Both the position numbers and the translations under genes were made by a program. Shown piece after piece: positions 5,218 through 63,974 of a DNA stretch of 64,000 bases. Below the pieces are notes generated by a model. It was not told where the DNA came from, made no database searches, and saw nothing but the letters and a program-made list of their open reading frames with translations. The DNA is from Candidatus Magasanikiibacteriota bacterium. GTDB lineage: Bacteria; Patescibacteriota; Patescibacteriia; Magasanikbacterales; GWA2-37-8. How positions within the stretch are numbered: position 1 is the stretch's first letter; each line of letters opens with the position of its first letter. Location: NCBI GenBank assembly GCA_023246655.1, contig JAHFHX010000005.1, forward strand, positions 67 through 64,066, written 5' to 3'.

Positions 5218-5222
5218 ACAAA

Positions 5223-5330
5223 ATGTCTAAGACCTAATATTTAATTTCTAATAAAATGACTAATCCAGCCTTCAATGACCAAGGTTGTATATGTAGAAGT
5301 TTTAGAAATTAGATATTAGGTCTTAGACAT
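5223..5330. repeat. inverted-repeat element family D (atgtctaagacctaatatttaatttctaa ... ttagaaattagatattaggtcttagacat)
   Basis: About 108 bp with perfect about 29-bp terminal IRs; paralogs at 19625-19732 and 50684-50790. Confidence 0.8.
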
Positions 5331-5332
5331 TA

Positions 5333-9509: not shown

Positions 9510-9611
9510 AGAAATAGAAAAATAAGCGACTGCCCATTCTCCGCTGGGGCGGGGAATCCAACGCCCAATCACAAATTATAAATCTGAAATCTTAAATCTG
9601 AAATCAACTCT

Positions 9612-16736: not shown

Positions 16737-16908
16737 TTGCCCCCCGAGGGGGGAACGGCGACACAACAATTTCTAATACTTACTACTTGCTACTAAATAC
16801 TTCACACACTATGTCCGGTCACTCCAAATGGCACCCCGCACAATGCCTCTCCGCCCAAGGCGGATCGGCCTATACGGGGCAGGCAACATCTAAGTAGCTT
16901 TCATCCAT

Positions 16909-18159: not shown

Positions 18160-18693
18160 ATGGTCCGCATTCTCGGTATCGACCCCGGCTTTGGCCGCAT
18201 TGGCTACGGGGTAATTGAACACAAGAAAAACAGCACTGACTGGCAAGCCGTTAGTTATGGTTGTATTTCCACCAACCCCAAGGAAACCTTCGTTGAACGC
18301 CTCAAAGACCTGCATGAAGAACTCATCGATCTCATCAAAGAATACCAGCCTACCCGCATGGCTGTGGAAGAATTATTTTTTTTCAAGAATTTAAAAACCG
18401 CCATTGAAGTTGCCCAAGCTCGTGGAGTGATTCTTCTCACGGCAGTTGAAAGCAGTCTCCCCGTCGACGAATTTACTCCGCTTCAAGTAAAACAAGCCAT
18501 GACCGGCTACGGCCGGGCCGAAAAAGGTCAAATGCAAAAAATGGTGGCGATGATTTTAGGAATCAAAGGCAAAATTAAATCCGACGACGCGGCGGATGCG
18601 CTGGCGGTGGCGCTGACGGCGGGTCAGTCACTCTGGGTCGCAAAAATAAAATCCGGATATACGGATGCATCCGGATCTACAGATAAAAAATAA
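18160..18693 (+). CDS. ruvC: crossover junction endodeoxyribonuclease RuvC
   Basis: ILGIDPGFGRIGYGVIE N-terminus, catalytic acidic residues; C-terminal 12 aa encoded by inverted repeat. Confidence 0.9.
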   Translation: MVRILGIDPGFGRIGYGVIEHKKNSTDWQAVSYGCISTNPKETFVERLKDLHEELIDLIKEYQPTRMAVEELFFFKNLKTAIEVAQARGVILLTAVESSLPVDEFTPLQVKQAMTGYGRAEKGQMQKMVAMILGIKGKIKSDDAADALAVALTAGQSLWVAKIKSGYTDASGSTDKK

Positions 18694-19133
18694 GTGATTA
18701 ATTTTATAAATATGGAGGGAAAATTACTACATGAGGAATTAACTTATAAAATTAGAGGTTTACTTTTTAATATCCATAACGAGCTCGGTAGATTTAGAAA
18801 TGAACAACAATATTGTGATGCTTTAGAAAATGTATTAAAAGAGAATAATATTGTTTATCAACGAGAATTTATTTTACCACCATCTTTTGACGGAGAGAAA
18901 AAAGGAAGGAATAAAGTTGATTTTTTAATCGAAGGAAAGATTATTATTGAAGCAAAATGCGTTTCTTTTCTTAATAAAGATAACTATTTCCAATGTCAAC
19001 GTTATCTCAACTCACTCAATCTCGATTTGGCATTATTGGTAAACTTTAGGTCTAAAAATTTGTTAATCCGACGTATTCTTAATTCTAGTCGTCTACAAAA
19101 TCCGTAAATCCGGATGCATCCGTATATCCGGAT
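18651..19133. mobile_element. IR-flanked cassette carrying a GxxExxY-family ORF
   Basis: Perfect 26-bp inverted repeats atccggatatacggatgcatccggat (18651-18676) and its reverse complement (19108-19133) flank ORF 18694-19107. Confidence 0.7.
18694..19107 (+). CDS. GxxExxY family protein (PD-(D/E)XK-like)
   Basis: 137 aa; homologous to ORF 29281-29691 at both N- and C-terminal blocks; family typical of rRNA intervening sequences. Confidence 0.7.
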   Translation: MINFINMEGKLLHEELTYKIRGLLFNIHNELGRFRNEQQYCDALENVLKENNIVYQREFILPPSFDGEKKGRNKVDFLIEGKIIIEAKCVSFLNKDNYFQCQRYLNSLNLDLALLVNFRSKNLLIRRILNSSRLQNP

Positions 19134-19609: not shown

Positions 19610-19624
19610 TTAGATTGAAAAATT

Positions 19625-19732
19625 TCTAAGTATCTAATTTCTAATGTCTAATATAAGGTCAAATGACAAAATTGGACATTGGAAATTTTATTAGAAATTA
19701 GACATTAGGTGAATTAGACATTTATGGAGTCC
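19625..19732. repeat. inverted-repeat element family D
   Basis: ctaatttctaat ... ttagaaattag IRs, paralog of 5223-5330. Confidence 0.75.
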
Positions 19733-24158: not shown

Positions 24159-24264
24159 AACACAGATTACACAGATTGACGACGAGGATTACGCAGATGT
24201 GATCCGTCAATTACCTCCGTCTTCACAATCTGTGTAGCTTACTTTAATCAGCGTAATCTGTGTT
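24159..24264. repeat. repeat family F (cacagattacgcagat / aatcagcgtaatctgtgttatg)
   Basis: Palindromic copies; 22-mer aatcagcgtaatctgtgttatg also immediately precedes ruvC ATG (18138-18159). Confidence 0.7.
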
Positions 24265-25371
24265 ATGAACAAAAAAATTCTCTCCGAACTCTCCCCCGGT
24301 CTGCGCAAACTCATTGTTACCGACACCACTTCCAAAACCAATCGCATCGCCGGCATCCACGCGCATACTTCCAAAGCCAAAAGCCCAGTTTCCACATATG
24401 CCATGGAAACATTACAACACCTTAACGGCGGTTCCACACTCAACGCCGCACTTTGGCTTAAGGAACATCTCGATAATGGCGGCAAGCTCGTGGTTACGCT
24501 CGCGGGTGCTTTGAGTTCGTTCCAAATTGGTGTTATGCTTGCGGAACTCATTCGCCAAGGCAAAGTTCATCTCATCTCGGCAACGGGCGCTAACCACGAA
24601 GAATCGTATTACCGCTACGTCGCGCACTCCCATTACGCCTACATTCCCCGCTACACCGAGCTCACTCCCGAGCAAGAAGCCGAACTGCGCGACGCGGGCC
24701 TCCGCCGCATCACTGATACTTTTCTCCCCGAAGATGAATCCGTCCGCATCATGGAGCCGCACCTCCTTAAAATGTGGAAGGAAGCCGAAAAAAAAGGCAA
24801 GCGCTATTTCCCCCACGAATATTTCCGTCGCCTCTTCTCCGAAGGTCTTATTAAGCCCGACAAAGGCGCCAACCCAGCCGACTGCTGGACGTACGAAGCG
24901 TACAAAAAAAATGTTCCCACTGTCATCCCGGGCTTTGAAGACTCCACCATGGGAAATATCTTCGCGAGCTACGTCTACAATGGCCCGCATAAAAAGAAAG
25001 AGGATACGAGCGTCAGTGGTAGTGTGATGAAAACCGGCCTAGAATATTTTGGCTTTCTCTACGATTGGTATCAAGCTGAATCAGCCAATGCCCCGATTGC
25101 ATTTCTCCAACTCGGTGGTGGCATTGCCGCTGATTTCCCCATCTGCGTGGTTCCATCTCTCAAACATGATCTTAAATTAAAAAAAGTTCGTGACTGGGCT
25201 GGGTTTATTGAAATCGGCTCCAGCCCCATGTCCTACGGTTCCTACTCTGGCGCCGGCGGCAAAGAAAAAATTACGTGGGATAAGTTATCCACGAAGAGTT
25301 ATTACCAGATTATTCAGAGTGATGTGACTGTAGCGTTTCCGTGGATTGCGGCGGTGTTACTTGGGCTATAG
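24265..25371 (+). CDS. deoxyhypusine synthase family protein (homospermidine synthase-like)
   Basis: Blocks VVTLAGALSS, ISATGANHEE, QLGGGIAADF, ITWDKL, FPWIAAVLLG align to the DHS NAD-binding core. Confidence 0.75.
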   Translation: MNKKILSELSPGLRKLIVTDTTSKTNRIAGIHAHTSKAKSPVSTYAMETLQHLNGGSTLNAALWLKEHLDNGGKLVVTLAGALSSFQIGVMLAELIRQGKVHLISATGANHEESYYRYVAHSHYAYIPRYTELTPEQEAELRDAGLRRITDTFLPEDESVRIMEPHLLKMWKEAEKKGKRYFPHEYFRRLFSEGLIKPDKGANPADCWTYEAYKKNVPTVIPGFEDSTMGNIFASYVYNGPHKKKEDTSVSGSVMKTGLEYFGFLYDWYQAESANAPIAFLQLGGGIAADFPICVVPSLKHDLKLKKVRDWAGFIEIGSSPMSYGSYSGAGGKEKITWDKLSTKSYYQIIQSDVTVAFPWIAAVLLGL

Positions 25372-28190: not shown

Positions 28191-29180
28191 TTAAATTATT
28201 TTTTGTGGTTTTATTTTTTTAAATCTCCTTATAAATCCCTGTACACCGTTTTGATCCATCATCCCGGCCTGTGGCCCGTGTTGTTGCACCACATTACACG
28301 CATTGGCCGTGCCCCATTCGAGCGCATGGGGGATATCGTGTCCAAAATGCCTGGCCGCGATGTAAGCTGAAGAAAATGCGTCCCCAGCGCCGGTTTTCGC
28401 TACTACTTCAACAGGGTACGGATCCAAGTGCCATAATTCGTCTCTGTCACCCGCCCAGGCACCTCGTTTGGCGTCTGTCAGTGCGACTTCTCTAACCCCC
28501 ATCCCTAAAAGTTCGTGAATCACTGCCGTAATACTTTTTTCTTCTTCCTCCGTCCGCCCTAAAATTTTTTCGGCTTCTTCTTTATTAACGATCAAGAGAT
28601 CCGCTCGGCGTACCACATCACGTAAGGTCGTCAAAGCGTATTTAAGCAGGTACGAACCAGGGTTGATCGCCAATTTAATCGTCGGGTGGTCCATTAAAAG
28701 TTTTATAAGAGCCGTCTGTACTGTATCGTGGCCTTCACTTAGTCCCGTGTAATAAATCCATTCAGTCGCCGGAAAGGGTTGCGGCCATTGGTAGTTTTTT
28801 TTGTCAGTGTAGGACAATATTGTCCGTTCCTGTTTGTAATTTAAAATTATGGAATACCGAGTTTTGGCATCCTTATCAAACGTAATATAATCAGTATTTA
28901 CGTTCTGTTTTTTAAGTTCCTCAATCGCACTTTGTCCATTCATATCACCACCGACGGTGCTCACGACCGCCGTAGTCAGCCCAAGTTTTTGCGCTCCCAC
29001 CGCGACATTGGGCGCGTTACCACCCAGAGCTTGGAAACTATCAACAATCGGAATTTTAGCGCCATAATCCAGGCATAGTTCCATCTCCTTAAGTTCGGCA
29101 ACCTGACATTCCGCGCAGGAATCATCAATTTGAATGTGAGTATCAATGACGGGGTCGCCAATCGCGATTAAGTTATACAT
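28191..29180 (-). CDS. PfkB family carbohydrate kinase
   Basis: GG motif ALGGNAPN near N-terminus and TGAGDAF signature near C-terminus. Confidence 0.8.
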   Translation of the reverse strand: MYNLIAIGDPVIDTHIQIDDSCAECQVAELKEMELCLDYGAKIPIVDSFQALGGNAPNVAVGAQKLGLTTAVVSTVGGDMNGQSAIEELKKQNVNTDYITFDKDAKTRYSIILNYKQERTILSYTDKKNYQWPQPFPATEWIYYTGLSEGHDTVQTALIKLLMDHPTIKLAINPGSYLLKYALTTLRDVVRRADLLIVNKEEAEKILGRTEEEEKSITAVIHELLGMGVREVALTDAKRGAWAGDRDELWHLDPYPVEVVAKTGAGDAFSSAYIAARHFGHDIPHALEWGTANACNVVQQHGPQAGMMDQNGVQGFIRRFKKIKPQKII

Positions 29181-29192
29181 ATATGTACGAAT

Positions 29193-29724
29193 ATACGAAA
29201 TAATACGAACTTACGAACTACGAACACACCATGCATGATGTGCTAATTTAGAAACAAAATACTTACGAACTACGAACAAATTAATATTCATTAATTACTC
29301 TTTTAATTACAACTCCACGGTAAGTAAAACAGGCGATAATAGCTAATTTTAAGTTGAGCGCGGACAAGTATTGTTTTGTTTGTTCAATGACAGAAGCTGA
29401 AATAAATTCGCCGCGCTTTAATTCTAAAACAATTTTATTTTCAATCAAAAAATCAAGAAAATATTTACCGACAATTTCATTTTCGTACCGGAGAGGTACA
29501 TAAACTTGTTCGCCAAAGATAAGGTGTCTGTATCCTAGCCCAATGCCAACGGCTTTCTGGTAATATTTCTCTTGATGTCCGCCGCCAAGGCGTTTAGAGA
29601 CATCGATTAAAATGCCGTTAATAATAAAACTCAACTCTGGAAATAGTAAATCTTTTTTATTTACTACATATTGTTTCCCTCCACCAGGCATATTCGTAGT
29701 TCGTAAGTTCGTATTATTTCGTAT
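29193..29724. mobile_element. IR-flanked cassette carrying a GxxExxY-family ORF (tacgaa-type IRs)
   Basis: 33-bp IR atacgaaataatacgaacttacgaactacgaa (29193-29225) and its reverse complement at 29692-29724. Confidence 0.7.
29281..29691 (-). CDS. GxxExxY family protein
   Basis: GHQEKYY (GxxExxY) motif; homolog of ORF 18694-19107. Confidence 0.7.
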   Translation of the reverse strand: MPGGGKQYVVNKKDLLFPELSFIINGILIDVSKRLGGGHQEKYYQKAVGIGLGYRHLIFGEQVYVPLRYENEIVGKYFLDFLIENKIVLELKRGEFISASVIEQTKQYLSALNLKLAIIACFTYRGVVIKRVINEY

Positions 29725-29738
29725 GTTCGGATATAGTT

Positions 29739-30047
29739 TTATTCTCGTTCATATTCCTTAACCATGTCAGAGCTGTGCTTGTGTTTCCCTCGTATAATCT
29801 GAATTAATTCTCGTCCTGCAACGAGGAACATCAACCCCATCGCAAACATGACGATCTTGTCATGATGGACTAATGCGTACACAAAGAGCGATGCTGAAGC
29901 CACTACAAAGACCGCGTCCTGACGTTTTTCTGCTTCGAGTAATACGCCATACGCAAGTGCGAGCGCACCCATAAAGCCGACGACGTAGACGGCGAGGTCG
30001 ACGAACGAGGTTGGGAGGTTGGGAAGTAGGTTTTCGAGAGGAATCAT
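29739..30047 (-). CDS. LAB_N-like small membrane protein
   Basis: SLFVYALVHHDKIVMFAMGLMFLVAGRELIQI resembles lipid-A-disaccharide synthase N-terminal domain. Confidence 0.4.
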   Translation of the reverse strand: MIPLENLLPNLPTSFVDLAVYVVGFMGALALAYGVLLEAEKRQDAVFVVASASLFVYALVHHDKIVMFAMGLMFLVAGRELIQIIRGKHKHSSDMVKEYERE

Positions 30048-30717
30048 ATAATATGTTTTAGTAATTTATTAATAGTTCCAGGATTTTTGAGAGTTTCAGT
30101 TCCTGCTATATCAAAAACTTTCCACCAAATATCCATGTAAGGGTAGGAAGCAAGAAAGTCAAAAAATTCTTTATGGTGGCCGGGATGTTCTTTATTAATA
30201 ACGTCGGCAACATAAATCCATTGAACCAAATGCGATAGATCTCCATGGCCGTTTTCGTTCAGATCCTCCAAGTCAATGAATGGCTTTCCTTGAGAAATGA
30301 CTTTTTCTCTCAGGTCTCTTGGACCTCGTATATTCATTTCTGGGGTTACGGTAATAATTTCATCATACCCCAGTTGGGAGGCTCTTTTTTTCAGAATTTT
30401 TAACAAATTTTCACGTCCGGAACCACCACTATTTGCACAGACTTCGACTCCAAGATCCTCTAACCATAGACTAAACCCACTCTTATCCTCCAATCCTCCA
30501 AGGCATTTGAAGCACACGTCGCAAGCGGTCGAATATCGTGAGGGATGTCTCTCCAGACAGTATTTCTGAGATCGGGAATAGGGATTTTTTGTCCTGTCTC
30601 ATGGTCTTCATGATAAGAGCACTTGTCCCACGTTTCTAGTGGTAGTGTTTTAAGCTGTGCCAACAATTTTTGCCAACCCTCGCTTAATTGTGGTTTTTTC
30701 CAAAAGTCAAATCTCAT
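30044..30717 (-). pseudogene. possible frameshifted gene (two overlapping ORFs 30460-30717 and 30044-30517)
   Basis: Two same-strand ORFs overlap by 58 nt in different frames; combined about 225 aa of unknown function. Confidence 0.3.
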
Positions 30718-30718
30718 A

Positions 30719-30940
30719 TTATTTTTTCTTTATTAACCGCCACTCCCGATACAAATTCGACACAATAAAAACCATCTGCAAAATAATAAAAATTAAATCG
30801 TGTAAATAGATGCTGTAGGCGAGTAAAAAAATTCCCCCAATCGCAAAATTCCAGTCGCGCGGTTTTTCTTTTTTAATGAAAATGCCGTGGGTGATTATGA
30901 GAAGGCCGATGACGCCGAGGAGTTTGAAGAGGTAGGACAT
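30719..30940 (-). CDS. LAB_N domain membrane protein
   Basis: LLAYSIYLHDLIFIILQMVFIVSNLYREW matches LAB_N consensus. Confidence 0.55.
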   Translation of the reverse strand: MSYLFKLLGVIGLLIITHGIFIKKEKPRDWNFAIGGIFLLAYSIYLHDLIFIILQMVFIVSNLYREWRLIKKK

Positions 30941-30945
30941 AGTGA

Positions 30946-31435
30946 AGGATTGTAGGCGAGTAGGACGGTAGGATTGTAGAAAAATTAGTTAAAATTATTT
31001 ACCATCTTGTTGAGCATTCTCATTACTTCGTCTAATAAAGTATCGCATTTTTTAAAATCAAGCTGACTACCAAACGGTAAGCGCCTCGTGATTTCTAGTT
31101 GAGTTTCTAATTCCGATCCTGAACCAAAGGCAATGAGTAAAAATTGGCGATATTCCTTTTCACCTCCGCGGCGTCTTCCTTCAGCAATGTTTGACGGTAT
31201 AGAAACGGCAGCGCGTCTCATTTGAGATGCCAAACCATACATTTCTGACTTTGGAAATTTATCCGTTAATTCGTAAATACAAACCACCAACTCCATCGCT
31301 TTCTGCCAAACTATGAGGTCTTTGTATGTATCCCGCATATTTATTAGGATGGTAGGTGAGTAGAGTGTGGTAAACAAGTGAAAGACACTACTGCCGTAAT
31401 CACCCTACTTTCCTACCGTCCTACAATCCTATTAC
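30946..31435. mobile_element. IR-flanked cassette carrying a four-helix-bundle ORF
   Basis: gtaggacggtagga-containing IRs at 30946-30978 and 31403-31435 (reverse complement). Confidence 0.6.
30985..31377 (-). CDS. four helix bundle protein (TIGR02436 family)
   Basis: DLIVWQKAMELVV..Y.LTDKFPKSEMYGLASQMRRAAVSIPSNIAEG signature. Confidence 0.8.
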   Translation of the reverse strand: MFTTLYSPTILINMRDTYKDLIVWQKAMELVVCIYELTDKFPKSEMYGLASQMRRAAVSIPSNIAEGRRRGGEKEYRQFLLIAFGSGSELETQLEITRRLPFGSQLDFKKCDTLLDEVMRMLNKMVNNFN

Positions 31436-32379
31436 TCTTTCCACAGGTTAACGTAACCAATCGCCTCCAACGCCGCCACCACGCCTTGCCCGGCGGCAAT
31501 TGCAATCTGCTTGTGGGGGACATCGGTGACGTCGCCGGCAGCAAAAATCCCGGGGACATTGGTGTGGCATAGTTTATCCGCCACAATCTCTCCGGCTGCA
31601 TTTCGTTCTAAGTTAGTGGCGAATTGCGAATTAGGAATCGCGCCAATATGCACCATCACGCCCTGCACGGGGAGCATATGCTCGGCGCCATCGGGGGTTT
31701 TGTATTTTATTCCCTCAACTTTTGTCTCGCCCATAATTTCGGTGGTCATGGCTTCGTATAGAATGGTCACATTTCTCATTTCCTTTAATTTATCAATAAG
31801 AATTTTATCACCCTTGGGGAAGCCGTCTTGCTTCTCTTGGGTATTAGGATATTTGGTCAGGACGTAAACTTGTTTGGCAATGCCACTCATCATGAGAGCC
31901 GACTCCAGGGCGCTGTTGCCTGCCCCAATCGTCACGGTATCTTTACCTTTGAAGAGTGGTCCATCGCATACCGTGCAGGAGGTAATGCCTTTGCGGTCCA
32001 GTTTCATCTCCCCCGGAATACCAAGTTTTTTAGGGTGAATGCCGGTACCAATAATCACCGTCTTCGTCTCATACGTCTTCTCTTCGCCCACGGCGTTTTT
32101 GGCCTTCACAAGGTGATAATTTTTGGTCGGCACGATTTCCGTCACCATCCATCCTTCATCAAATTCTACGCCATAGGATAGTGCATGCTCATGAAATTTT
32201 TGCGCCAAATCATACCCTTGGATGCTCTGAATCCCCGGCCAGTTGTTGGTTTCCCCCGACAATGCCACTTCGCCACCGATGTTATCAGTCACGACTTTAA
32301 AATTAAGTTTTCGCCGCGCCGCGTACACGGCCGCACTACAGCCCACAGCTGCTCCTCCGATGATGATAAGATCAAACAT
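31432..32379 (-). CDS. trxB: thioredoxin-disulfide reductase
   Basis: FAD GGAAVG, redox CTVCDG, NAD(P) GAGNSALE, GIFAAGD. Confidence 0.9.
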   Translation of the reverse strand: MFDLIIIGGAAVGCSAAVYAARRKLNFKVVTDNIGGEVALSGETNNWPGIQSIQGYDLAQKFHEHALSYGVEFDEGWMVTEIVPTKNYHLVKAKNAVGEEKTYETKTVIIGTGIHPKKLGIPGEMKLDRKGITSCTVCDGPLFKGKDTVTIGAGNSALESALMMSGIAKQVYVLTKYPNTQEKQDGFPKGDKILIDKLKEMRNVTILYEAMTTEIMGETKVEGIKYKTPDGAEHMLPVQGVMVHIGAIPNSQFATNLERNAAGEIVADKLCHTNVPGIFAAGDVTDVPHKQIAIAAGQGVVAALEAIGYVNLWKE

Positions 32380-34745: not shown

Positions 34746-34840
34746 AATGTAAGCAGATTAAGCAGAGTAAGTTTGTAAGCAGATTAAGCAGAAATAACGT
34801 CGCGATTTTTAATCTGCCTATTCTGCTTACCTTGCTTACT
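34745..34840. repeat. repeat family G (taagcagattaagcaga palindromic)
   Basis: gtaagcagattaagcaga x2 and inverted partner aatctgcctattctgcttac. Confidence 0.6.
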
Positions 34841-37846: not shown

Positions 37847-38069
37847 AAGCGTTATCACCCGTAATCAGCGGGGAGCTGGAGGCAGAACTCCGTCAGTCGG
37901 AAAGTAGATCCTCCCGGGTACGCCCGTTATAGCAGTAATTAAGTAAAAGCACAAGATGGTACCGTCTGCGGCTTGCCGCACCCCGAGCGCAGCCCTCGAG
38001 CAAAGTCGAGAGGCCGAAGTCGAGGGGTCGTCAAATCATGGACTCTTGGCACGTGGAAGCGTGCTTTTT
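37847..38069 (+). ncRNA. candidate structured 5' leader/sRNA upstream of ileS (weak T-box-like features)
   Basis: GC-rich, stem-rich about 220 nt bounded by promoter and terminator (gcacg-tggaa-cgtgc-ttttt); contains CCGUUA and GAUGGUACCGUC; not confidently classified. Confidence 0.3.
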
Positions 38070-38155
38070 AATTTTCAATTTACAATCAAGGCCCAATATA
38101 TCAATGATGCCTTCAAAATTCATTGGAAATTGAAAATTATAAATTGAAAATTTTT
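38066..38155. repeat. palindromic repeat family I (aattttcaatttacaat ... attgaaaattataaattgaaaatt)
   Basis: Between leader terminator and ileS ATG; same IR family flanks the 4HB cassette at 51975-52431. Confidence 0.65.
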
Positions 38156-50683: not shown

Positions 50684-50790
50684 TCCTAAGTACCTAATTT
50701 CTAATATCTAATATAATGCCCAATGCCAAATTTGACATTTTGATTTAGGAATTTTATTAGAAATTAGATATTAGATGAATTAGAAATTAT
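50684..50790. repeat. inverted-repeat element family D
   Basis: Paralog of 5223-5330 and 19625-19732. Confidence 0.75.
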
Positions 50791-51970
50791 AAACCTTTCC
50801 ATTTAAAACAGTTGCGACCGGCCACCCTTTTAATTTCCACCCCGCAAAGGGCGACCAACCACATTTGGTTTTTAAATCCTCGTTTCTAACTTCTTTCTCT
50901 AAATTAAGATCTACTATAACCCAATCATTCGTTTCCGGCAACTCAAAAATTTTTTGTGCATTGCCACTCATCACAGCTACCAATTTTTCCAGTGATAATT
51001 TACCTTTATTGTATGCACTTAGGAGTAAGGGAAGCGAAGTCTCAATCCCCGGAACACCAGAAGGAGAATCCGGATAGGCTCGAGCTTTTTCTTCGAGCGT
51101 GTGCGGGGCGTGGTCGGTTCCAATGGTATCAATAGTACCATCCGCAATGCCCGCCCACAGAGCGCGCTGATCTTCCGGTGTGCGGAGCGGAGGGTTCATC
51201 TGCGCCTTGGAGCCAAGCACGGCGTAGGCTTCGCTATCTAAAAATAAATGATGCGGTGTGGTTTCGGCTGAGACGTTTACCCCTTTTGCCTTGGCCTCGC
51301 GGATTAAATCCACCTCCTCTTTTGTACTCGCGTGGAGAACATAGAGTTTAGTTTTATAAAATTCCGCCATCTCAATAGCCTGCGCCACGGCGCTAGCGGC
51401 GACCGACCGATCTCTAATTAATCCATGCACTTTGATACTATCATTATCTTTAAATTTTTCTTTTTGCATTTTTATTTTTATTTCGTCCTCCGCGTGCACC
51501 GCCACAACTAAATTCAATTCAGCCGCCAGTTTAAAAATTTGTTCTTGGTTAGATCTCTTATCCACGAGTAAATTACCGGTACTTGAACCCATGAACAGTT
51601 TAATTCCAATAATTTCATCTTTTACTTTCTTTATTTCCTCTAAATTATCCGGCGTTGCCCCAAAGTAAAAATAATAATGAAGAGGAATTTCAACTTCAGA
51701 GAGCTGTTCATCAATTATTTGTTTTTTGTTTCTTAGTGCTTCGGCAGTGGTGATAGCCGGTGTATTATTGGGCATATCAAAAACCGTTGTCACACCACCA
51801 TGGATAGCAGCTTGTGCGCCAGTTTTCCAATCTTCTTTATGCTCTCCGCCGGGGACACGAAAGTGGACGTGCGGGTCAATGAGGGCGGGGAGGGCGAGGA
51901 GGTTATTGAGGTTGAGGGAAGAGGGGAGATCAAGGTCAAGATTCTGATTGTTGTAGCTTTTGATCAGCAT
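50780..51970 (-). CDS. pyrC: dihydroorotase (amidohydrolase)
   Basis: DPHVHFR metal-binding start, DHAPH motif; within pyr cluster. Confidence 0.8.
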   Translation of the reverse strand: MLIKSYNNQNLDLDLPSSLNLNNLLALPALIDPHVHFRVPGGEHKEDWKTGAQAAIHGGVTTVFDMPNNTPAITTAEALRNKKQIIDEQLSEVEIPLHYYFYFGATPDNLEEIKKVKDEIIGIKLFMGSSTGNLLVDKRSNQEQIFKLAAELNLVVAVHAEDEIKIKMQKEKFKDNDSIKVHGLIRDRSVAASAVAQAIEMAEFYKTKLYVLHASTKEEVDLIREAKAKGVNVSAETTPHHLFLDSEAYAVLGSKAQMNPPLRTPEDQRALWAGIADGTIDTIGTDHAPHTLEEKARAYPDSPSGVPGIETSLPLLLSAYNKGKLSLEKLVAVMSGNAQKIFELPETNDWVIVDLNLEKEVRNEDLKTKCGWSPFAGWKLKGWPVATVLNGKVYNF

Positions 51971-51974: not shown

Positions 51975-52431
51975 TAATTTTCAATTTTTAATTTACAATT
52001 TTCAATGAATGATCAATTTCCAATTCAGCTCTTTTTACCGTCTAACGTCATTAAAATTTTTTGAAAAATCAACGTTAACTCCTGAGCTTCTTTCCAATTT
52101 ATTCGCAATTCCTCTTGTCTATTTGCGTCGGTGGTCGCTAACATTCTTAACCAATGTTTTGTCTCCTGAACTTCCTTTTTACAAATATAAATTTTATTTC
52201 TAAAATCTTTTGGTGATGAGGCGCCATTAGCCTCCATATAATTTGCTCCAACACTCGTAGCCGACCGTAGTATCTGGGAAACAATAGAACGATTAAATTC
52301 ATTAAGTGTCAAACTCTTACAAAATTTAATAATAATCTCACCAAAGCGAGCCGTCCTATCTTCCAAATCATATTTTGAAAATTGAGTCATTGCAAATTGA
52401 TTGAAAATTGTAAATTAAAAAATTGAAAATT
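51975..52431. mobile_element. IR-flanked cassette carrying a four-helix-bundle ORF
   Basis: About 33-bp IRs aattttcaatttttaatttacaattttcaat / attgaaaattgtaaattaaaaaattgaaaatt. Confidence 0.7.
52025..52390 (-). CDS. four helix bundle protein (TIGR02436 family)
   Basis: FPK.E...L..Q..RSATSVGANYMEANG signature. Confidence 0.8.
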   Translation of the reverse strand: MTQFSKYDLEDRTARFGEIIIKFCKSLTLNEFNRSIVSQILRSATSVGANYMEANGASSPKDFRNKIYICKKEVQETKHWLRMLATTDANRQEELRINWKEAQELTLIFQKILMTLDGKKS

Positions 52432-52896
52432 TCAAAGGTTATAATCCTTAATCTCTTCCTGTTCAAAAATTTTCTCGCAATATTTGCAACTCAACTTAAT
52501 CACCGTGCCGTAGCGTTTTACAGAAAACAAGGTCGTCATGCGCTCAAAGTTGGTAATGCACTTGGGGTTGGGGCATACTACTACGCGTTCGATTGTTTGC
52601 GGAATTTGGACTTTAAATTTTTTGGTGACTTTATAATTTTTAATAATATTAATTGATGCCTCGGGAGCGAGCAAAGCAACCTCGTTGGCTTCTTCTGGCG
52701 TGAGTTCACGCCCCTCCACTTTGATTAAATCTTTGTGCCCCATGGCGCGGCTGGGGAGGTTAAGACCAACCGTGACAACCTTCTTGTGATCAGGGAGACG
52801 TAAAACGCGAATAATTTTTAACGCTCGGCCAGCGGTAATGTGGTCAATCACGGTGCCGTCTTTGATGGCGGAGACTAGTAATTCTTGTGGAGTCAT
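52432..52896 (-). CDS. pyrI: aspartate carbamoyltransferase regulatory subunit
   Basis: Allosteric domain plus zinc domain CPNPKC...CKYCE. Confidence 0.9.
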   Translation of the reverse strand: MTPQELLVSAIKDGTVIDHITAGRALKIIRVLRLPDHKKVVTVGLNLPSRAMGHKDLIKVEGRELTPEEANEVALLAPEASINIIKNYKVTKKFKVQIPQTIERVVVCPNPKCITNFERMTTLFSVKRYGTVIKLSCKYCEKIFEQEEIKDYNL

Positions 52897-52935: not shown

Positions 52936-53138
52936 TGTCATCCCGAGCGCACGAGGGATCTCTGGCTCACACATTTGTCATTTCGAGCGGAGTGACGCCT
53001 CGCGGCGGAACGAAGTCGAGAAATCTCGTCGTATCGTTGCGAGATTCATCCACTACGCTCCTTCGTCGTCGCTTCGGTCGGAATGACAAGTAAGCCAGAG
53101 ATCCCTCGTCGGCTGCGAAGCCTCGCTCGGGATGACAG
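52936..53138. repeat. tandem family A elements between pyrB stop and pyrI start
   Basis: Two adjacent copies of gtcatcccgagcg...gagggatctctggctca ... gggatgacag. Confidence 0.8.
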
Positions 53139-54062: not shown

Positions 54063-54083
54063 AGTAGATGGTTATTAGTTAAT

Positions 54084-54196
54084 CCCCCCTCGAGGGGGGC
54101 TCACGGGGGGTGTAAGACTCTTGTGTGGCCGTTTCGTCGTCCAACCGTTAGCGACGCAAAGGTCTCACACCCCCACTACCCCCCTCGAGGGGGGAA
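54084..54196. repeat. family B palindromic element overlapping the carB 3' end
   Basis: cccccctcgaggggggc...ggtgtaag...tctcacaccccc...cccctcgagggggg; supplies the last about 15 codons and stop of carB. Confidence 0.75.
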
Positions 54197-57100
54197 TTTA
54201 CAAATTCCTGCCACGAGAGAGGCACTCCGTCCTTTTTTGCTCTATTCGTCAAACAATCCAGAAACAACATTGCCGTTTGCAGGTTGGTAATAATAGGCAC
54301 GTGATGGTTAATAGCCATGCGGCGAATTTGGTAACCATCAGTCGTCACTTTCTTGCCCTGGCCACTTGGAATATTTATTACCACATCCACCTCGCGCTCC
54401 GCAATTGCTGTCAACACATTTGGCTCACCGCCCTCGCGTGCTTTATATAAAAAAGCCGAGGCAATACCGTGGCGTGACAGAAAATCGTGCGTGCCTTCAG
54501 TAGCATAAATGTTCCACCCCTCTTCGTCAAGCTGTTTAATAGCCGGCAGAAGTTCTAATTTTTTATCGCCACCAATGGAGAGTAAAATATTTTTGCCCTT
54601 AACCGTTTGTTCAGTCGCAAGCCAGGACATAAAGAACGCTTCTTGGTAGTTGCGCCCCAGGCACGCCACCTCGCCAGTCGAGGCCATCTCCACACTGGCA
54701 ATCGGGTCCGACCCTTTGAGTCGGTTATAAGAGAATTGCGGGGTTTTTACCCCCACATAGTCCAAATCAAGGGTAAAATACTGGGCTGGCACGTGACGAC
54801 CCAGCATCACTTGCGTGGCAATCTCAATAAAATTATGGCCGGTCACTTTGGAAACAAACGGAAAAGAGCGTGAAGCACGTAAATTACATTCAATAACTTT
54901 AACCTCATTATTTTTGGCCAGCAGTTGAAAGTTAAAAGGCCCGGTAATGTTAAGCGCCGCCACAATCTGGCGCGCGATGTGTTTTGCTTGGCGAATTGTT
55001 TCGAGGTAGAGCCGCTGTGGTGGAAGTACAATGGTCGCGTCTCCCGAATGTACGCCCGCATTTTCAATATGTTCCGAAATTGCCTTAATCACAATTTCTC
55101 CATCCTGCGCCACGCCATCCACCTCCAATTCTTTTGCTCCAGTAATAAATTTTGACATTACCACCGGGTGCTCGGGCGACACAATCGCCGCTTCGCCCAA
55201 ATATTTCTCCAATTCTTCGTCACTCCACACCACATTCATGGCTGTGCCGGAAAGAATATATGAAGGGCGGATGATAAGAGGATACTGAACATCACTCGCA
55301 AATTTTTTAGCGGCCGAGAGGTTAGTCACTTCTTGCCAGGTTGGCTGGTCTATTTTAAGTTTATTCAAAAGTGCGGAAAATTTTTGACGATTTTCAGCGA
55401 TGTCGATTGATTGGGGGGAGGTGCCGAGGATGAGCATCGTCGGTTTACTGTCATCCCGACGACGAAGGAGGGATCTCTGGCTTACCGATTCAACTGTCAT
55501 CCCGAGCGAGGCCTCGCGGCCGACGAGGGATCTTTGTCCGTCGATTGGTGAGCCAGAGATTCCTTGTCGCTGCGGCGCTCCTCGGAATGACAATTGAGGG
55601 TATGCCTTCGCGAGTGGAAGTGCCAAATTATTCGGAATTTGCCCACCCACCGACACAATGATCCCCTTGGGATTTTCAAAATCCGCAATGTCGCGCACTC
55701 TTTCCAAAGTTAATTCTTCAAAATACAAACGATCTGATTCGTCATAATCAGTGGAGACCGTTTCCGGGTTAGAGTTGATAATAATGGGGGATTCATCTAG
55801 TTTGCGCAGTGTCCGGGCGGTGTTGACGGCGCACCAATCAAATTCTACGGATGATCCGATACAGTACGGGCCAGAGCCAAGGACGATAATGGATTTTTTT
55901 GTACTCGGTTTTATATCATGTTCGGTGCCATGATACGTTGTGTAAAGATAATTAGTTTCGGCAGAAAATTCTCCAGCCAAAGTATCAATTTGTTTTATCA
56001 CCGGCGTAATTTTATTTTTAATGCGCAGTTCTCGGATTTTGTCTTCGGTTGAGTTGATTAATTTGGCGATGGTTTTGTCGGAGAAGCCGAATTGTTTGGC
56101 GGTGCGGAACAACTCCCCCCTCGAGGGGGGTAGTGGGGGTGTGAGTCCTTTGCGTCGCGGATCATTCGCCAACCGTGAGCCACGCAGGGGTCTTACACCC
56201 CCCATGAGGCCCCCCTCGAGGGGGGATTTGCGAACGCTGTGTTCAACATCCACAATCGCCTTCACATGCTCCAAAAACCATTTATCAATCTTCGACATCT
56301 CATGAATTTTCTCCACACTCATCCCACCACGCATCGCCTTATAAATTGCAAACAAACGCCGATCGGTTGGGTGTTCAATTTCCGCCTCGGGATCAGGAAT
56401 ATCATGCGGATAGTCACTCAAGCCATTGGCGCCAATGTTTAACATGCGCACGGCTTTTTGGAGCGCCTCCGGAAATGATCGCCCAATTGCCATCACCTCA
56501 CCAACACTTTTCATTTCCGATCCAATGGTCCGTTCCGCGATTTTAAATTTCGTTAAATCCCACCGCGGAATTTTCACCACGAGATAGTCGAGCGCCGGTT
56601 CAAAACAGGCGGACGTTTTTTTCGTCACGGAATTTCGGAGTTCATGCAATTGTTTCCCCAGCGCTAGTTTCGCAGCGACGAACGCAAGGGGATACCCAGT
56701 GGCTTTAGATGCGAGCGCACTCGACCGGCTCAACCGCGCGTTCATCTCAATCACGCGGTAATCGCCGTTCTTAGGGTTCAGCGCATACTGAATATTACAT
56801 TCGCCGACAATTCCCATTGCTCGCGCTACCTTGATAGCTACCTCGCGCAGCATGTGATACTCCTCATTCGTCAGCGTCTGCGACGGCGCGACCACAATGC
56901 TCTCGCCCGTATGAATACCCATGGGGTCAAAATTTTCCATGTTACACACCGTAATGGCGGTGTCATTACTATCGCGCACAATTTCGTATTCAATTTCTTT
57001 CCACCCGCCCAAATATTCTTCAATCAAAATTTGGGGAGCACCATGCAGTGCTTCCCCGGCGCGTTCGCGGAGTTCAGCCTCATTCTCAATTTTTCCTGAT

Positions 57101-57627
57101 CCTAATCCGCCGAGCGAAAAACCCGAGCGCATCATAATCGGGTATTTTATTTTTTTTGCTGCCTCAAGGGCTTCCTCCACCGTCGTCACCGCAAAACTCA
57201 CCGGAGTCTTAATCCCAATCTTAGTCAAAGCCCTCTTGAAGAAATCCCGATCCTCAGTAATGCGTATCGCTTCCACTGGAGTCCCGAGAACCACAACCCC
57301 ATTTTTTTTTAACACCCCTTTTGCCTCCAACGCGAGCCCCAAATTCAGCGCCGTCTGCCCGCCAAAACCCAAGAGGATCCCGTCCGGTTTTTCTTTTTTA
57401 ATAATTTGCGAAACGGTTTCTAAATTGAGTGGCTGTAAATAAACCGTGTCTGCCATCCCCGGGTCCGTTTGCACCGTGGCAATATTGGGGTTCACGAGTA
57501 CGGTAAAAATTCCCTCTTCTTTAAGAGCTTTAATGGCCTGTGAGCCGGAGTAATCGAATTCGCCAGCTTGGCCAATGCGGAGACCGCCGGAGCCGAGGAG
57601 GAGGATTTTTTTAATTTGTTTGGGCAT
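54148..57627 (-). CDS. carB: carbamoyl-phosphate synthase large subunit
   Basis: Two ATP-grasp halves, oligomerisation and MGS-like domains; two extra internal inserts. Confidence 0.95.
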   Translation of the reverse strand: MPKQIKKILLLGSGGLRIGQAGEFDYSGSQAIKALKEEGIFTVLVNPNIATVQTDPGMADTVYLQPLNLETVSQIIKKEKPDGILLGFGGQTALNLGLALEAKGVLKKNGVVVLGTPVEAIRITEDRDFFKRALTKIGIKTPVSFAVTTVEEALEAAKKIKYPIMMRSGFSLGGLGSGKIENEAELRERAGEALHGAPQILIEEYLGGWKEIEYEIVRDSNDTAITVCNMENFDPMGIHTGESIVVAPSQTLTNEEYHMLREVAIKVARAMGIVGECNIQYALNPKNGDYRVIEMNARLSRSSALASKATGYPLAFVAAKLALGKQLHELRNSVTKKTSACFEPALDYLVVKIPRWDLTKFKIAERTIGSEMKSVGEVMAIGRSFPEALQKAVRMLNIGANGLSDYPHDIPDPEAEIEHPTDRRLFAIYKAMRGGMSVEKIHEMSKIDKWFLEHVKAIVDVEHSVRKSPLEGGLMGGVRPLRGSRLANDPRRKGLTPPLPPSRGELFRTAKQFGFSDKTIAKLINSTEDKIRELRIKNKITPVIKQIDTLAGEFSAETNYLYTTYHGTEHDIKPSTKKSIIVLGSGPYCIGSSVEFDWCAVNTARTLRKLDESPIIINSNPETVSTDYDESDRLYFEELTLERVRDIADFENPKGIIVSVGGQIPNNLALPLAKAYPQLSFRGAPQRQGISGSPIDGQRSLVGREASLGMTVESVSQRSLLRRRDDSKPTMLILGTSPQSIDIAENRQKFSALLNKLKIDQPTWQEVTNLSAAKKFASDVQYPLIIRPSYILSGTAMNVVWSDEELEKYLGEAAIVSPEHPVVMSKFITGAKELEVDGVAQDGEIVIKAISEHIENAGVHSGDATIVLPPQRLYLETIRQAKHIARQIVAALNITGPFNFQLLAKNNEVKVIECNLRASRSFPFVSKVTGHNFIEIATQVMLGRHVPAQYFTLDLDYVGVKTPQFSYNRLKGSDPIASVEMASTGEVACLGRNYQEAFFMSWLATEQTVKGKNILLSIGGDKKLELLPAIKQLDEEGWNIYATEGTHDFLSRHGIASAFLYKAREGGEPNVLTAIAEREVDVVINIPSGQGKKVTTDGYQIRRMAINHHVPIITNLQTAMLFLDCLTNRAKKDGVPLSWQEFVNSPLEGGSGGVRPLRR
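55448..55593. repeat. family A element inserted in frame in carB
   Basis: Translates to ...GQRSLVGREASLGMTVESVSQRSLLRRRDDSK... inside carB. Confidence 0.75.
56114..56226. repeat. family B element inserted in frame in carB
   Basis: Translates to PLEGGLMGGVRPLRGSRLANDPRRKGLTPPLPPSRGE. Confidence 0.75.
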
Positions 57628-57636: not shown

Positions 57637-57685
57637 CTGTCATCCCGAGCGAGGCTTCGCAGCCGACGAGGGATCTCTGTCTCAG
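57637..57685. repeat. family A half-element immediately upstream of carB start
   Basis: ctgtcatcccgagcgaggcttcgcagccgacgagggatctctgtctcag. Confidence 0.7.
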
Positions 57686-57804
57686 TTTTTACTTTATCTT
57701 AGCCAAATTTATTAAATTTCACCCTGTCGTCACTTGCTTTCTTCTTCTTCTGCTATTATGCCTTGTTCCTCTAGCGCCACGGTAGCGCGAGAAAGGAGGA
57801 CAAA

Positions 57805-58032
57805 ATGGTGGCAGACATAGTAAAACCGTTACTGACTACTCTGATGGTAGTGTTCGGTTGGGGAGGGTGGTTTCTAACCTTTCAGGTTTTCGTGTCATGG
57901 GCCCTGTCATGGGCAATGGGCGGGGGGCGGGTCACGAACGCCGAGATGGCGGAGTGGGTGGGATGGTCGGTGCTCTTCACCGCCGTCCCCTGGTTGATTC
58001 TGCGCCGGCTTGACCGTCGGCCGCGGAACTGA
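57805..58032 (+). CDS. small GC-rich two-TM membrane protein with strong Shine-Dalgarno sequence
   Basis: aaggagg 5 nt upstream of ATG; 75 aa, Trp/Gly-rich hydrophobic; two downstream hairpin terminators (58042-58089, 58098-58164). Confidence 0.4.
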   Translation: MVADIVKPLLTTLMVVFGWGGWFLTFQVFVSWALSWAMGGGRVTNAEMAEWVGWSVLFTAVPWLILRRLDRRPRN

Positions 58033-58041
58033 CCCCCCAAG

Positions 58042-58164
58042 CCTCGCCGCCACATCTCCGGCAATTCGGGAGACTGTGGCGGCGAGGCCAAGCGAAAAAC
58101 CAACCTACCAATCTCACCATGTTTTCAAATCCTTGAAGATATGGTGAGTAGGTTGGTTTTTTGT
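58042..58164 (+). terminator. tandem terminator hairpins after small ORF
   Basis: 13-bp stem cctcgccgccaca...tgtggcggcgagg, then accaacctac...gtaggttggt followed by tttttt. Confidence 0.5.
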
Positions 58165-58185
58165 TTTAAAAGGACACTCGCCATT

Positions 58186-58352
58186 TGTCATTCCGACCGC
58201 AGGAGGAATCTCTGGCTCACTCAACGGTGTCGACATCGGTCGTTGGTTGAGCCAGAGATCCCTCGTCGCCGCGAGGCTCGCTCGGGATGACAGATCGCCA
58301 TAACCATTTAGCCATGTCAACTAGATCCTTCGCTCCGACTCAGGATGACACC
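58186..58352. repeat. family A elements at carA 3' end
   Basis: tgtcattccgaccgc...gagccagagatccctcgtcgcc...gggatgacag plus half copy ctagatccttcgctccgactcaggatgaca. Confidence 0.7.
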
Positions 58353-59737
58353 AAGTTGTAGAATTTCTGAAATAAAAATTTCGTATCCGTCGGCCCCGGG
58401 CTCGCTTCCGGGTGAAACTGCACCGAAAAAAACGGCAGCGTCTCGTGCGCCACGCCTTCTACCGAATTATCATTCAAATTTCTAAAATTCACATACCAAC
58501 CCTTCGGGAGTGTTTTCTCATCCACCGCATACCCATGGTTTTGGCTGGTAATGACACACTTGCCCGAAAAGGAGCTACGCTCCCTCGGGCCAAGTTTCGT
58601 CCCTGCCCCGAGAGGGCCGCGCCCTTTTTCGGGGGCAAGTTCCATACATGGCTGATTCTGCCCGCGGTGGCCAAAGGGGAGTTTGTACGTTTTGGCGCCA
58701 GCGGCGAGCGCCATCAGTTGCGACCCCAAACAAATTCCCATAATTGGTTTTGGTTTTTTTCCGCCCGAAGCGGATCCGCCTTGGGCGGAGAGTGCCTTCT
58801 TTAAAATCGTAATCGTCTCCGTACACTGCGCCGGGTCGCCCGGGCCGTTGGAGAGGAAGAGGCCGTCGAATTTATCATTCGTGTAATCGTAATTGTAGGG
58901 CACGCGTTCAATAGTCCAGGGGAATTGTTGGAGGGAGCGGATGATGTTTTCTTTCATGCCGCAGTCCACGGCGATAATTGTTTTTGTCCGGCCAAGTCCC
59001 CCCTGTGAGGGGGGTAGGGGGGTGTGAGCCGTCGGGGACAATAAACTCGCATCCTTTGATAATTGGCGACGCACCGGTCTTACACCCCCCGGTGAGCCCC
59101 CCTCGAGGGGGGAGTTTCCGTGATACGTTTTTGGACGAGTGATTGAGACTTCGGCGACGAGATTGCGGGTATTGGGGTCGACAAAAGTGAGACCGCGAAC
59201 GAAACCCCTCTCTGTATCTCTCCCCTTATAGGAGAGAGAGTGATTGAGAGAAACGGCGATAGTTCCTTCGTTTACGGTTTTCCCTCCCCTATAAGGGGAG
59301 GGGCGCGGGGTGGGGTTTCGGTCACCGCTCACCATCGCCCCGAGCATCACCCCACTCTCCCTAATAATTTTCGTCAACGCCCGCGTATCCACGCCCATGA
59401 TAATCGGCACCTGTTCGTCCTTGAGCCACTCCAACAGCGACCGCAAGGCGGTAGCATGGCTATATTTCTCACACGCCTCACTTACCACCACTCCAGAAAG
59501 ATGAATTTTTTTGGATTCCCAGCGTCCAGGGCCAGGCACGCCGTAATTACCAATCAACGGATACGTAAACGTTAAAATTTGCCCATTATACGATGGGTCA
59601 GTCAGCGTTTCCACGTAGCCGGTCATGCCAGTGTTAAAGACGACCTCGCCATGAAAAACACCCTTCTGATGGGTGGGGGAGAGGCCAGGGAAGGATTGGC
59701 CGTTTTTTAGGAGGAGTTGGGAGGGGTTGAATTTCAT
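58340..59737 (-). CDS. carA: carbamoyl-phosphate synthase small subunit (glutamine amidotransferase)
   Basis: CarA N-domain plus class I GATase (GICLGSQ, HPE); about 85 aa longer than typical because of three palindromic inserts. Confidence 0.9.
   Translation of the reverse strand: MKFNPSQLLLKNGQSFPGLSPTHQKGVFHGEVVFNTGMTGYVETLTDPSYNGQILTFTYPLIGNYGVPGPGRWESKKIHLSGVVVSEACEKYSHATALRSLLEWLKDEQVPIIMGVDTRALTKIIRESGVMLGAMVSGDRNPTPRPSPYRGGKTVNEGTIAVSLNHSLSYKGRDTERGFVRGLTFVDPNTRNLVAEVSITRPKTYHGNSPLEGGSPGGVRPVRRQLSKDASLLSPTAHTPLPPSQGGLGRTKTIIAVDCGMKENIIRSLQQFPWTIERVPYNYDYTNDKFDGLFLSNGPGDPAQCTETITILKKALSAQGGSASGGKKPKPIMGICLGSQLMALAAGAKTYKLPFGHRGQNQPCMELAPEKGRGPLGAGTKLGPRERSSFSGKCVITSQNHGYAVDEKTLPKGWYVNFRNLNDNSVEGVAHETLPFFSVQFHPEASPGPTDTKFLFQKFYNLVSS
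58582..58616. repeat. small palindromic insert in carA (ccctcggg...ccccgagaggg)
   Basis: Encodes extra GPRERSSFSG-like segment. Confidence 0.45.
58997..59112. repeat. family B element in frame in carA
   Basis: tcccccctgtgagggggg...ggtgtgag...tcttacacccccc...cccctcgagggggg. Confidence 0.75.
59199..59319. repeat. family C element in frame in carA
   Basis: cgaaacccctctct...ccctcccctataaggggaggggcgcggggtggggtttcg; inverted copy of 758-854. Confidence 0.8.
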
Positions 59738-61654: not shown

Positions 61655-61770
61655 ATCTGCGAACATACGAACGGCTACGAACGTACGAACTACGAATAAT
61701 AATTAACGATGCCATTTTTGTTCGTAATTCGCATGTTCGTACTAAATTCGTACGTTCGTACATAATTACG
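61655..61770. repeat. repeat family E (tacgaa/ttcgta palindromic)
   Basis: cgaacatacgaacggctacgaacgtacgaactacgaa ... ttcgtaattcgcatgttcgtactaaattcgtacgttcgtac. Confidence 0.7.
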
Positions 61771-62618: not shown

Positions 62619-62641
62619 ATGCTCGAATGATGAATGAAGAG

Positions 62642-63355: not shown

Positions 63356-63440
63356 AACTATGTACGAAATTACGAAATGTACGAAAGATACGAACTATAA
63401 AATTTCGTACCTTTCGTATTATTCGTATGTTCGCACATAA
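63356..63440. repeat. repeat family E overlapping folA 3' end
   Basis: tgtacgaaattacgaaatgtacgaaagatacgaa ... ttcgtattattcgtatgttcgcac; encodes folA C-terminal TYVRTYE. Confidence 0.65.
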
Positions 63441-63895: not shown

Positions 63896-63974
63896 AGATT
63901 ACGCAGATTATAATGGATTACGCAGATTCGAATCTGTGTAATCCACTTAAATCTGTCTGAATCTGTGTTATATC
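63891..63974. repeat. repeat family F (cacagattacgcagattcgaatctgtgta)
   Basis: Paralog of 24159-24264. Confidence 0.65.

Follow-up and report, generated by a model that had tools for sequence, protein, structure and literature searches.

Small-gene cassettes enclosed by cargo-specific repeat hairpins in operon spacers of a Candidatus Magasanikiibacteriota bacterium

Intervening sequences (IVSs) with an open reading frame (ORF) for the protein S23p, a bounding stem of 28 bp and excision by RNase III are known from the ribosomal RNA (rRNA) of Coxiella, Leptospira and Salmonella, and neither the function of the IVS ORFs nor the origin of IVSs has been settled since the early 1990s (PMC4990558). 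Insertions in the rRNA of bacteria of the candidate phyla radiation (CPR) likewise contain 23S_rRNA_IVP ORFs (PMC11270868), and the GxxExxY/PDDEXK_3 family is listed as of unknown function (PMC3424549). Here we describe four hairpin-enclosed small-gene cassettes, C1 to C4, with ORFs of these two families, in 64,000 nt of contig JAHFHX010000005.1 (positions 67 to 64,066; hereafter the window) of a Candidatus Magasanikiibacteriota bacterium (assembly GCA_023246655.1). The cassettes have in common with the rRNA IVSs of Leptospira, Coxiella and Brucella and with the CPR rRNA insertions the PF05635 cargo, a length of about 400-600 nt, the enclosure of the ORF in a stem loop of terminal inverted repeats (about 28 bp or more), a GC content below that of the host (30-40% in C1-C4 versus 45% in the window) and a sporadic distribution. 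However, they lie in the spacers of operon mRNA, their arms consist of cargo-specific units of 7-8 nt, and a second cargo, GxxExxY, is present. Complementary termini enclose all of C1-C4, whereas none is inserted in an rRNA helix (helices 9, 25 or 45 of 23S rRNA, or 16S rRNA). The IVS class is further defined by excision after transcription, by RNase III and without re-ligation.

Each of the four cassettes is on the same strand as both of its neighbours and occupies the spacer between them, and the arms abut or overlap the neighbours' stop and start codons. Three of the ORFs had been placed inside inverted repeats by a first-pass annotation; the pairing was reproduced by alignment at all three sites, and a window-wide search for inverted repeats added the fourth case, C1 (18651-19133). 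On the + strand between RuvC and a SpoU methylase, C1 is composed of a 34-nt 5' arm (18651-18684) with ATCCGGAT, TACGGAT and TACAGAT units, a GxxExxY/PDDEXK_3 gene of 131 amino acids (aa) (18712-19107), and a 3' arm (19100-19133) that overlaps the cargo stop codon. The 34-nt arms show 32/34 matches, with a perfect core of 26 bp. An alternative ATG, open in frame, is found at 19134, 1 nt past the arm, and the Pfam-supported start of the SpoU methylase is 11 nt further, at 19145.

C2, on the - strand between a 102-aa membrane ORF and a PfkB kinase, encodes a GxxExxY/PDDEXK_3 protein of 136 aa (29281-29691; P0241). Its 5' arm in mRNA sense (29693-29742, with a perfect core at 29693-29724) has TACGAA-type units and overlaps the 102-aa ORF (29739-30047) at its stop codon, and its 3' arm (29175-29224, perfect core 29193-29224) contains the PfkB start codon (29180-29178) within its outer, imperfect portion and has an additional inner partial copy at 29261-29278. 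The 50-nt arms match at 44 of 50 positions; the perfect TACGAA-type inverted repeat noted earlier for this ORF is present, with a length of 32 bp instead of 33 bp. C3, on the - strand between a TrxB-like and a YgjV-like gene, has a 5' arm of 8-nt GTAGGA/TTGTAGG (TAG-type) units (31404-31431) that immediately follows the TrxB-like gene (31432-32379) and its stop codon, and a 3' arm of CCTAC units (30946-30979) that stops 6 nt short of where the 73-aa YgjV-like ORF (30719-30940) has its start codon. These arms, of 27-38 nt, are about 80% complementary with a perfect 14-bp core, GTAGGACGGTAGGA. The flanking repeats agree with the first-pass annotation, and the ORF span (30985-31377) has to be shortened: the true ATG is at 31338, giving a four-helix-bundle/23S_rRNA_IVP protein of 117 aa (30985-31338). 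Exact-sequence look-ups returned P0001 for the ATG-start form and no record for the TTG-start form or for the TrxB-like protein.

C4, also on the - strand, encodes a divergent four-helix-bundle protein of 121 aa (52025-52390; P0121) and sits, as annotated before, between genes for PyrI (52432-52896) and a PyrC-like amidohydrolase (50780-51970). The 5' arm (52389-52431), with TTTNCAA units of 7-8 nt, begins directly after the PyrI stop codon; the 3' arm (51976-52017) stops 6 nt short of the amidohydrolase ATG (51970). The arms measure 42/43 nt with 38 matches and a perfect core of 22 bp.

As a control for chance pairing, the duplex energy between the two flanks was computed for 54 ORFs of the window. 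The four cassette ORFs gave -96.6, -76.3, -67.8 and -57.4 kcal/mol, versus mostly about -20 to -45 kcal/mol for the other ORFs; two further genes reached the cassette range, both of them bracketed by unrelated GC-rich palindromes. In predicted RNA folds of the whole cassettes, the arms enclose the entire ORF with 34-52 base pairs. The inverted repeats of the cassettes are not due to chance.

Profile searches in Pfam and NCBIfam assigned the C1 and C2 proteins to PF13366/TIGR04256 (GxxExxY/PDDEXK_3; 78 bits for C2 and 84 bits for C1, cutoffs 22 and 35) and the C3 and C4 proteins to PF05635 (130.4 and 61.6 bits, respectively; cutoff 33.8) and TIGR02436 (124 and 80 bits; cutoff 24), so that the cargo does comprise the two families tied to rRNA intervening sequences, as had been proposed from the letters alone. 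The C4 protein is 20% identical to that of C3. The C3 protein matches PDB entries 2gsc (E = 8e-25) and 2rld, each deposited with five chains, and S23p of Xanthomonas is a pentameric toroid (PMC4990558). Scores for Avd remained below the cutoffs (bAvd, 24 bits, cutoff 40; NF033474, 24 bits, cutoff 80), and there is no reverse transcriptase among the genes adjoining any of the four cassettes. For GxxExxY, a sequence search gave no solved structural relative; an AlphaFold2 model (pLDDT 90) predicts a minimal PD-(D/E)XK fold with weak similarity to Cas4, lambda-exonuclease-like enzymes, Hjc and splicing endonucleases. In an alignment of 40 GxxExxY sequences, G38..E41..Y44, D80, E90 and K92 are invariant or nearly so, and the catalytic set E41, D80, E90 and K92 is intact in C2. 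The cargo proteins are basic (pI 8.6-9.3). Their nearest relatives are in Patescibacteria, for GxxExxY in Ca. Magasanikbacteria, and the C3-like and C4-like four-helix-bundle clades each have thousands of close homologues in Patescibacteria.

The flanks of related genes were surveyed at 80 loci for C3-like four-helix-bundle genes, each species being represented by one genome, and at 80 metagenome loci for GxxExxY genes; 75 four-helix-bundle and 74 GxxExxY cassettes entered the flank-energy statistics, and 75 and 65, respectively, the counts of unit type. The median flank duplex energy was -58 kcal/mol for four-helix-bundle genes versus -37 for neighbouring genes, and -53 versus -34 for GxxExxY genes. 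The cassette architecture is widespread in Patescibacteria, and in about 140 cassettes the arms are arrays of about 2-6 tandem units of 7-8 nt. C3-like four-helix-bundle genes are accompanied by TAG-type units (TAGCTTN, GTAGGAN), with successive TAGs 7 nt apart in 147 instances and 8 nt apart in 81; the 80 nt upstream of these genes contain 5.3 TAGs versus 1.1 in controls, and the commonest array has five units. TACGAA, TACTAA, TACAGA and TACGGA units accompany GxxExxY genes (TACGAAT, TACTAAT, TACAAAT, TACAGAT, TACGGAT), often as 2+2 and with the outer ends CCTAC...GTAGG.

The type of unit follows the cargo. TAG-type arms were counted in 74 of the 75 four-helix-bundle cassettes and TAC-type arms in none, as against 4 and 57, respectively, among the 65 GxxExxY cassettes. 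The C4-like clade has a third unit, TTTNCAA, which recurs in the related genome L174, where the order pyrI, four-helix-bundle gene, pyrC is kept, and in a different context between ParE and a laminin-G protein. An inverted-repeat family of its own had been ascribed to each cassette. This holds for the exact sequence; however, there is one common tandem-unit architecture, and since unit type tracks the cargo family, C1 (TACGGAT/TACAGAT) and C2 (TACGAA) share one GxxExxY-associated class. The nearest homologues of the C3 protein (79% identity) have a large protein on one side and a pilin gene on the other, a context unrelated to that of C3; their arms have GGTTGTAGG units resembling the GGATTGTAGG/GTAGGA units of C3. 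Because the closest homologues carry related arms in unrelated contexts, ORF and arms appear to travel jointly, and the ORF does not seem to have settled in hairpins that the host already had.

Placement was analyzed in 36 four-helix-bundle and 46 GxxExxY cassettes whose arms were set by strict DNA alignment. Relative to the 5' arm, the end of the co-oriented upstream ORF has a median position of -3 nt in four-helix-bundle and +2 nt in GxxExxY cassettes, and the co-oriented downstream ATG lies at a median of about 5 nt past the 3' arm. Neighbours are co-oriented in 30-34/36 and 41-44/46 of the cassettes, respectively (83-96%). Certain junctions recur: the rpsG/fusA spacer contains GxxExxY cassettes in at least four independent loci, and both the PilB/PilC junction and the one before a PrgI-like gene are occupied by four-helix-bundle cassettes in some genomes and by GxxExxY cassettes in others. 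At one given junction, the arm units change together with the cargo.

The two arms of a cassette also evolve together. Between the window and L174, the order and number of units in the C4 arms are altered concordantly on both sides. Among 75 four-helix-bundle and 65 GxxExxY cassettes, the 5' arm pairs better with the 3' arm of its own cassette than with any other in 13 and 19, respectively, where about one is expected by chance; therefore, complementarity is locus-specific, on top of the family-wide units. Three proteins that recur in identical form on dozens of contigs (P0119, P0192 and P0340) each occurred in one context only; the cassettes are stable residents and not actively jumping. An apparent presence/absence polymorphism between L011 and L013 was rejected, the sequences being identical and differing only in gene calls. 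In L106, L107 and L108, several tandem copies of a module of about 27 nt with arm units (TTTTTCGTATTTCGTAGTATGGTAAA) lie downstream of the GxxExxY gene; the first copy in L106 is unlike that in L107/L108, which suggests that arms expand and contract by slippage.

The anatomy of the cassettes, their cargo-specific units, junction placement, co-orientation, arm co-evolution and wide distribution are established. To the interpretation that they are IVS-type stem-loop gene cassettes, residing in short spacers of protein-coding operon mRNA and not in rRNA helices, we would give an even chance. Each cassette is a promoterless small ORF in the loop of a 30-50-bp stem and would be transcribed together with the host operon. 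The arms would pair in the transcript and return the upstream stop and the downstream start to within a few nucleotides, and by this re-juxtaposition the insertion would be looped out of the operon mRNA. By analogy with rRNA IVSs, for which experiments have demonstrated such cutting, the stem is probably cut by RNase III; with the re-juxtaposition, such a site would make the insertion tolerable inside essential operons. Because each cargo clade has its own unit sequence, the encoded protein probably recognises the arrays, which would serve autoregulation, processing or propagation. The elements would be long-term residents inherited with their junction; replacement or acquisition would be rare and proceed through recombination, homing or another route without target-site duplication.

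Several observations weigh against this interpretation. A search for cassette copies in rRNA genes, which the first-pass annotation had proposed, found none among 194 related loci, and Rfam and tRNA scans detected no rRNA, tRNA or Rfam family in the window; therefore, the tie to true IVSs consists of the shared cargo families and the stem-loop design only. Mismatches in the arms show no excess of G.U over A.C (40 vs 44 in four-helix-bundle and 47 vs 34 in GxxExxY cassettes), so nothing indicates selection of pairing specifically in sense RNA, and complementarity could be maintained equally well at the DNA level. Stops in all three frames had been considered as the purpose of the arms and were rejected as a general rule: TAG every 7-8 nt is confined to the C3-like clade and is therefore no general design principle. 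In addition, no significant enrichment of own units was found outside the cassette in about 4-kb flanks at 57 other loci, and ORF-less hairpins of other unit types are abundant, so hairpins might be a host feature independent of the cargo.

A further comparison is with free-standing homing endonuclease genes, for example those of T-even phages, in which a small nuclease gene lies between conserved genes in the same orientation, at recurrent junctions and with no target-site duplication. The GxxExxY cassettes are alike in these respects. However, the homing endonuclease model has no flanking hairpin, which the cassettes carry, and the four-helix-bundle cargo is not a nuclease. We know of no cleavage specificity for GxxExxY proteins.

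The IVS-type interpretation may be extended, tentatively and with less confidence than its core, by taking the unit arrays as binding sites of the enclosed protein. For example, the ring of the pentameric four-helix-bundle protein could be matched by the 4-5 or so units in each arm, and the nuclease by the 2+2 units. The cassette would then be a self-recognising module of protein and hairpin and, with the matching ORF-less hairpins, part of a hitherto unrecognised, operon-punctuating post-transcriptional network in CPR bacteria, or a new class of selfish elements. The earlier suggestion that the proteins recognise their own inverted repeats fits the cargo-specific units.

Among the rival explanations, a DNA-level system like that of repetitive extragenic palindromes (REPs) and REP-associated tyrosine transposases (RAYTs) survives best, and we still hold it to be rather unlikely. 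According to this model, the cargo proteins, above all the GxxExxY nuclease, would bind and cleave the hairpins that their own units form in single-stranded DNA, whereby ORF-less hairpins, as analogues of REPINs (REP doublets forming hairpins), are maintained or spread, while the gene itself is single-copy, flanked by its own repeats and vertically inherited. The model accounts for the cargo-specific units, the intact catalytic residues of the nuclease, the missing G.U bias and the confinement of identical proteins to one context each, which suggests stable vertical inheritance; the design also resembles RAYT genes, which are single-copy between inverted copies of a short repeat, have ORF-less intergenic hairpins and reside for long in vertical descent (PMC3337134). 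ORF-less hairpins of C2 and C4 type are present in the same window (none of the ORF-less hairpins has an assigned strand). TACGAA-type units as in C2 form a hairpin at 61655-61765, in the spacer between two - strand genes, and TACGAAA units, matching the C2 flavour, one at 63360-63422; TTTTCAA/TTTACAA units as in C4 form one at 38065-38152, ending about 10 nt before the ATG at 38163. However, the four-helix-bundle cargo has neither a nuclease nor a transposase fold and yet the same architecture, and an HUH/Y1 (IS200/IS605-like) transposase is absent, Pfam and NCBIfam giving only PDDEXK_3 or 23S_rRNA_IVP. Tandem arrays of units make up the repeats, a connection of own units with dispersed hairpins lacked statistical significance, and the precise placement of the hairpins between the stop and start of co-oriented genes is unexplained by a DNA-only mechanism.

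A second possibility, which we consider improbable, is that the hairpins are operon punctuation of the host, controlling mRNA processing or stability, translational coupling or insulation, and that small genes accumulate in their loops as the only neutral sites of a compact genome. At least ten ORF-less hairpins and several direct arrays, with units of 7-9 nt, were found in window spacers between co-oriented genes, and unit-array spacers appear to be a general feature of the source genome. Besides the three hairpins above, they include one at 24160-24270 (CACAGATTA units), whose downstream ATG (24265) is inside the 3' arm, one at 63897-63970 (CGCAGATTA units), and intergenic hairpins at 1947-2020, 5222-5331, 19621-19720, 34749-34840 and 50690-50795; direct arrays are at 9573-9606, in the rpoB/rpoC spacer, 16777-16802 and 62625-62656. 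The units of the last five hairpins and of the direct arrays (AGTCTAA, TAATTTC/TAATATC, GTAAGCAGA, AAATCTG, TACTTAC and GAATGAA) have no partner cassette in the window. The abutment of the cassette arms on stop and start codons also speaks for punctuation, and other phyla have direct repeats of heptamers that end at start codons: the TAACTGA arrays of Beggiatoaceae, cyanobacteria and Bacteroidetes (PMC4679880), like the short tandemly repeated repetitive (STRR) sequences of cyanobacteria, are intergenic and have 7-nt units in 2-6 copies. The TAACTGA arrays end a few nucleotides before starts, overlap upstream stops, often lack a Shine-Dalgarno sequence and supply stops in three frames, the last as in the TAG-type clade only. 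In contrast to the cassettes, heptamer arrays are direct repeats on one side of a gene, with no inverted arrays around an ORF and no cargo protein. Against host punctuation, a change of cargo at one and the same junction brings a change of unit type, and the related arms kept by the closest homologues in unrelated contexts point to a shared history of arms and cargo, independent of the host locus.

The proposal of the first-pass annotation that the ORFs are passengers of diverse carriers like miniature inverted-repeat transposable elements, whose terminal inverted repeats are mobilised in trans by a transposase encoded elsewhere, is the least probable of all and is not borne out: inverted-repeat termini, ORF-less versions, AT-richness relative to the host and related cassettes in unrelated gene contexts of different genomes would suit it, but the longest word shared by the two boundaries is no longer than with randomly paired boundaries (36 four-helix-bundle and 46 GxxExxY cassettes), leaving no target-site duplication above chance, no transposase is in or near the cassettes, the four cassettes of the window all differ in sequence with no near-identical copies, identical proteins never occur in two contexts, the arms are tandem unit arrays and not unique terminal inverted repeats, they are bound to their cargo and not interchangeable, and strong co-orientation with exact stop/start abutment is unexpected from random transposition.

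Other features of the window and of the surveyed loci were noted. Between C2 and C3 (29739-30940) there are two small ORFs resembling three-transmembrane proteins, the 102-aa ORF (no Pfam match) and the 73-aa ORF (the C-terminal half of Imp-YgjV); between these two are overlapping ORFs (30044-30517 and 30460-30717, no Pfam match), possibly a single gene with a frameshift. GC-rich palindromic elements (TCCCCCCTCGAGGGGGG..., GGGATCTCTGGCTCAC...) are located at 52946-53114, 54083-54195, 55469-55564, 56110-56230, 58203-58264 and 59197-59323. Several of these are inside the carB-like (54148-57627) and carA-like (58340-59737) ORFs, where they encode in-frame peptides such as SPLEGG..GGVRPLR and resemble Rickettsia palindromic elements. 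The carB orthologue has 1159 aa in the window versus 1100 aa in L174, which fits insertions in the source lineage. Between carA and carB, a GC-rich island (57637-58293) is bracketed by 20-21-nt inverted repeats and holds an antisense hydrophobic ORF of 75 aa (57805-58032, + strand); L174 carries another GC-rich segment at the corresponding site, with an ORF of 135 aa without Pfam match, preceded by a TATTTAG/TATCTGG unit hairpin. Among the surveyed loci, L044 and L062 were rejected as rRNA contexts, as they gave single-motif matches that are not rRNA by Rfam. In L044 (2474-2959), a tRNA gene (2888-2959) comes within about 35 nt after the 3' arm of a four-helix-bundle cassette; stable-RNA genes are therefore among the neighbours of cassettes, too. 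Small GIY-YIG nuclease ORFs (79-85 aa) are found between co-oriented genes no more than about 1-1.3 kb from four-helix-bundle or GxxExxY cassettes in L176, L177, L180-L185 and others, and may be another small cargo gene in similar spacers.

We found no description in the literature of hairpin-enclosed GxxExxY or four-helix-bundle cassettes in operon spacers, of unit-array arms or of cargo-specific units, although the library searched was incomplete and family curators may know of the flanking repeats. A practical consequence concerns annotation, because the arms distort neighbouring gene calls and are often absorbed into adjacent ORFs. For example, RuvC (18160-18693) has a C-terminal tail that is the translated 5' arm of C1: the arm forms the last 14 or so codons of an ORF that runs about 24 residues past the Pfam domain (residues 4-153 of 177; region 18619-18693). 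In L005, the 3' arm is inside the annotated leader of a pilin gene. With the two cargo families present by the thousand in operon spacers of Patescibacteria, their hairpin enclosure, cargo-specific units, stop/start placement and shared junctions turn the vague label of IVS protein into cheap, concrete experiments. If the arrays are indeed binding sites, the IVS ORFs and the GxxExxY family would at last have a function; if the cassettes are selfish elements, the IVS would be a general hairpin parasite of RNA or DNA, in which small cargo proteins stand in for a transposase. The cassettes also bear on how the compact genomes of CPR bacteria tolerate insertions inside essential operons, such as those at rpsG/fusA, pyrI/pyrC and pilB/pilC.

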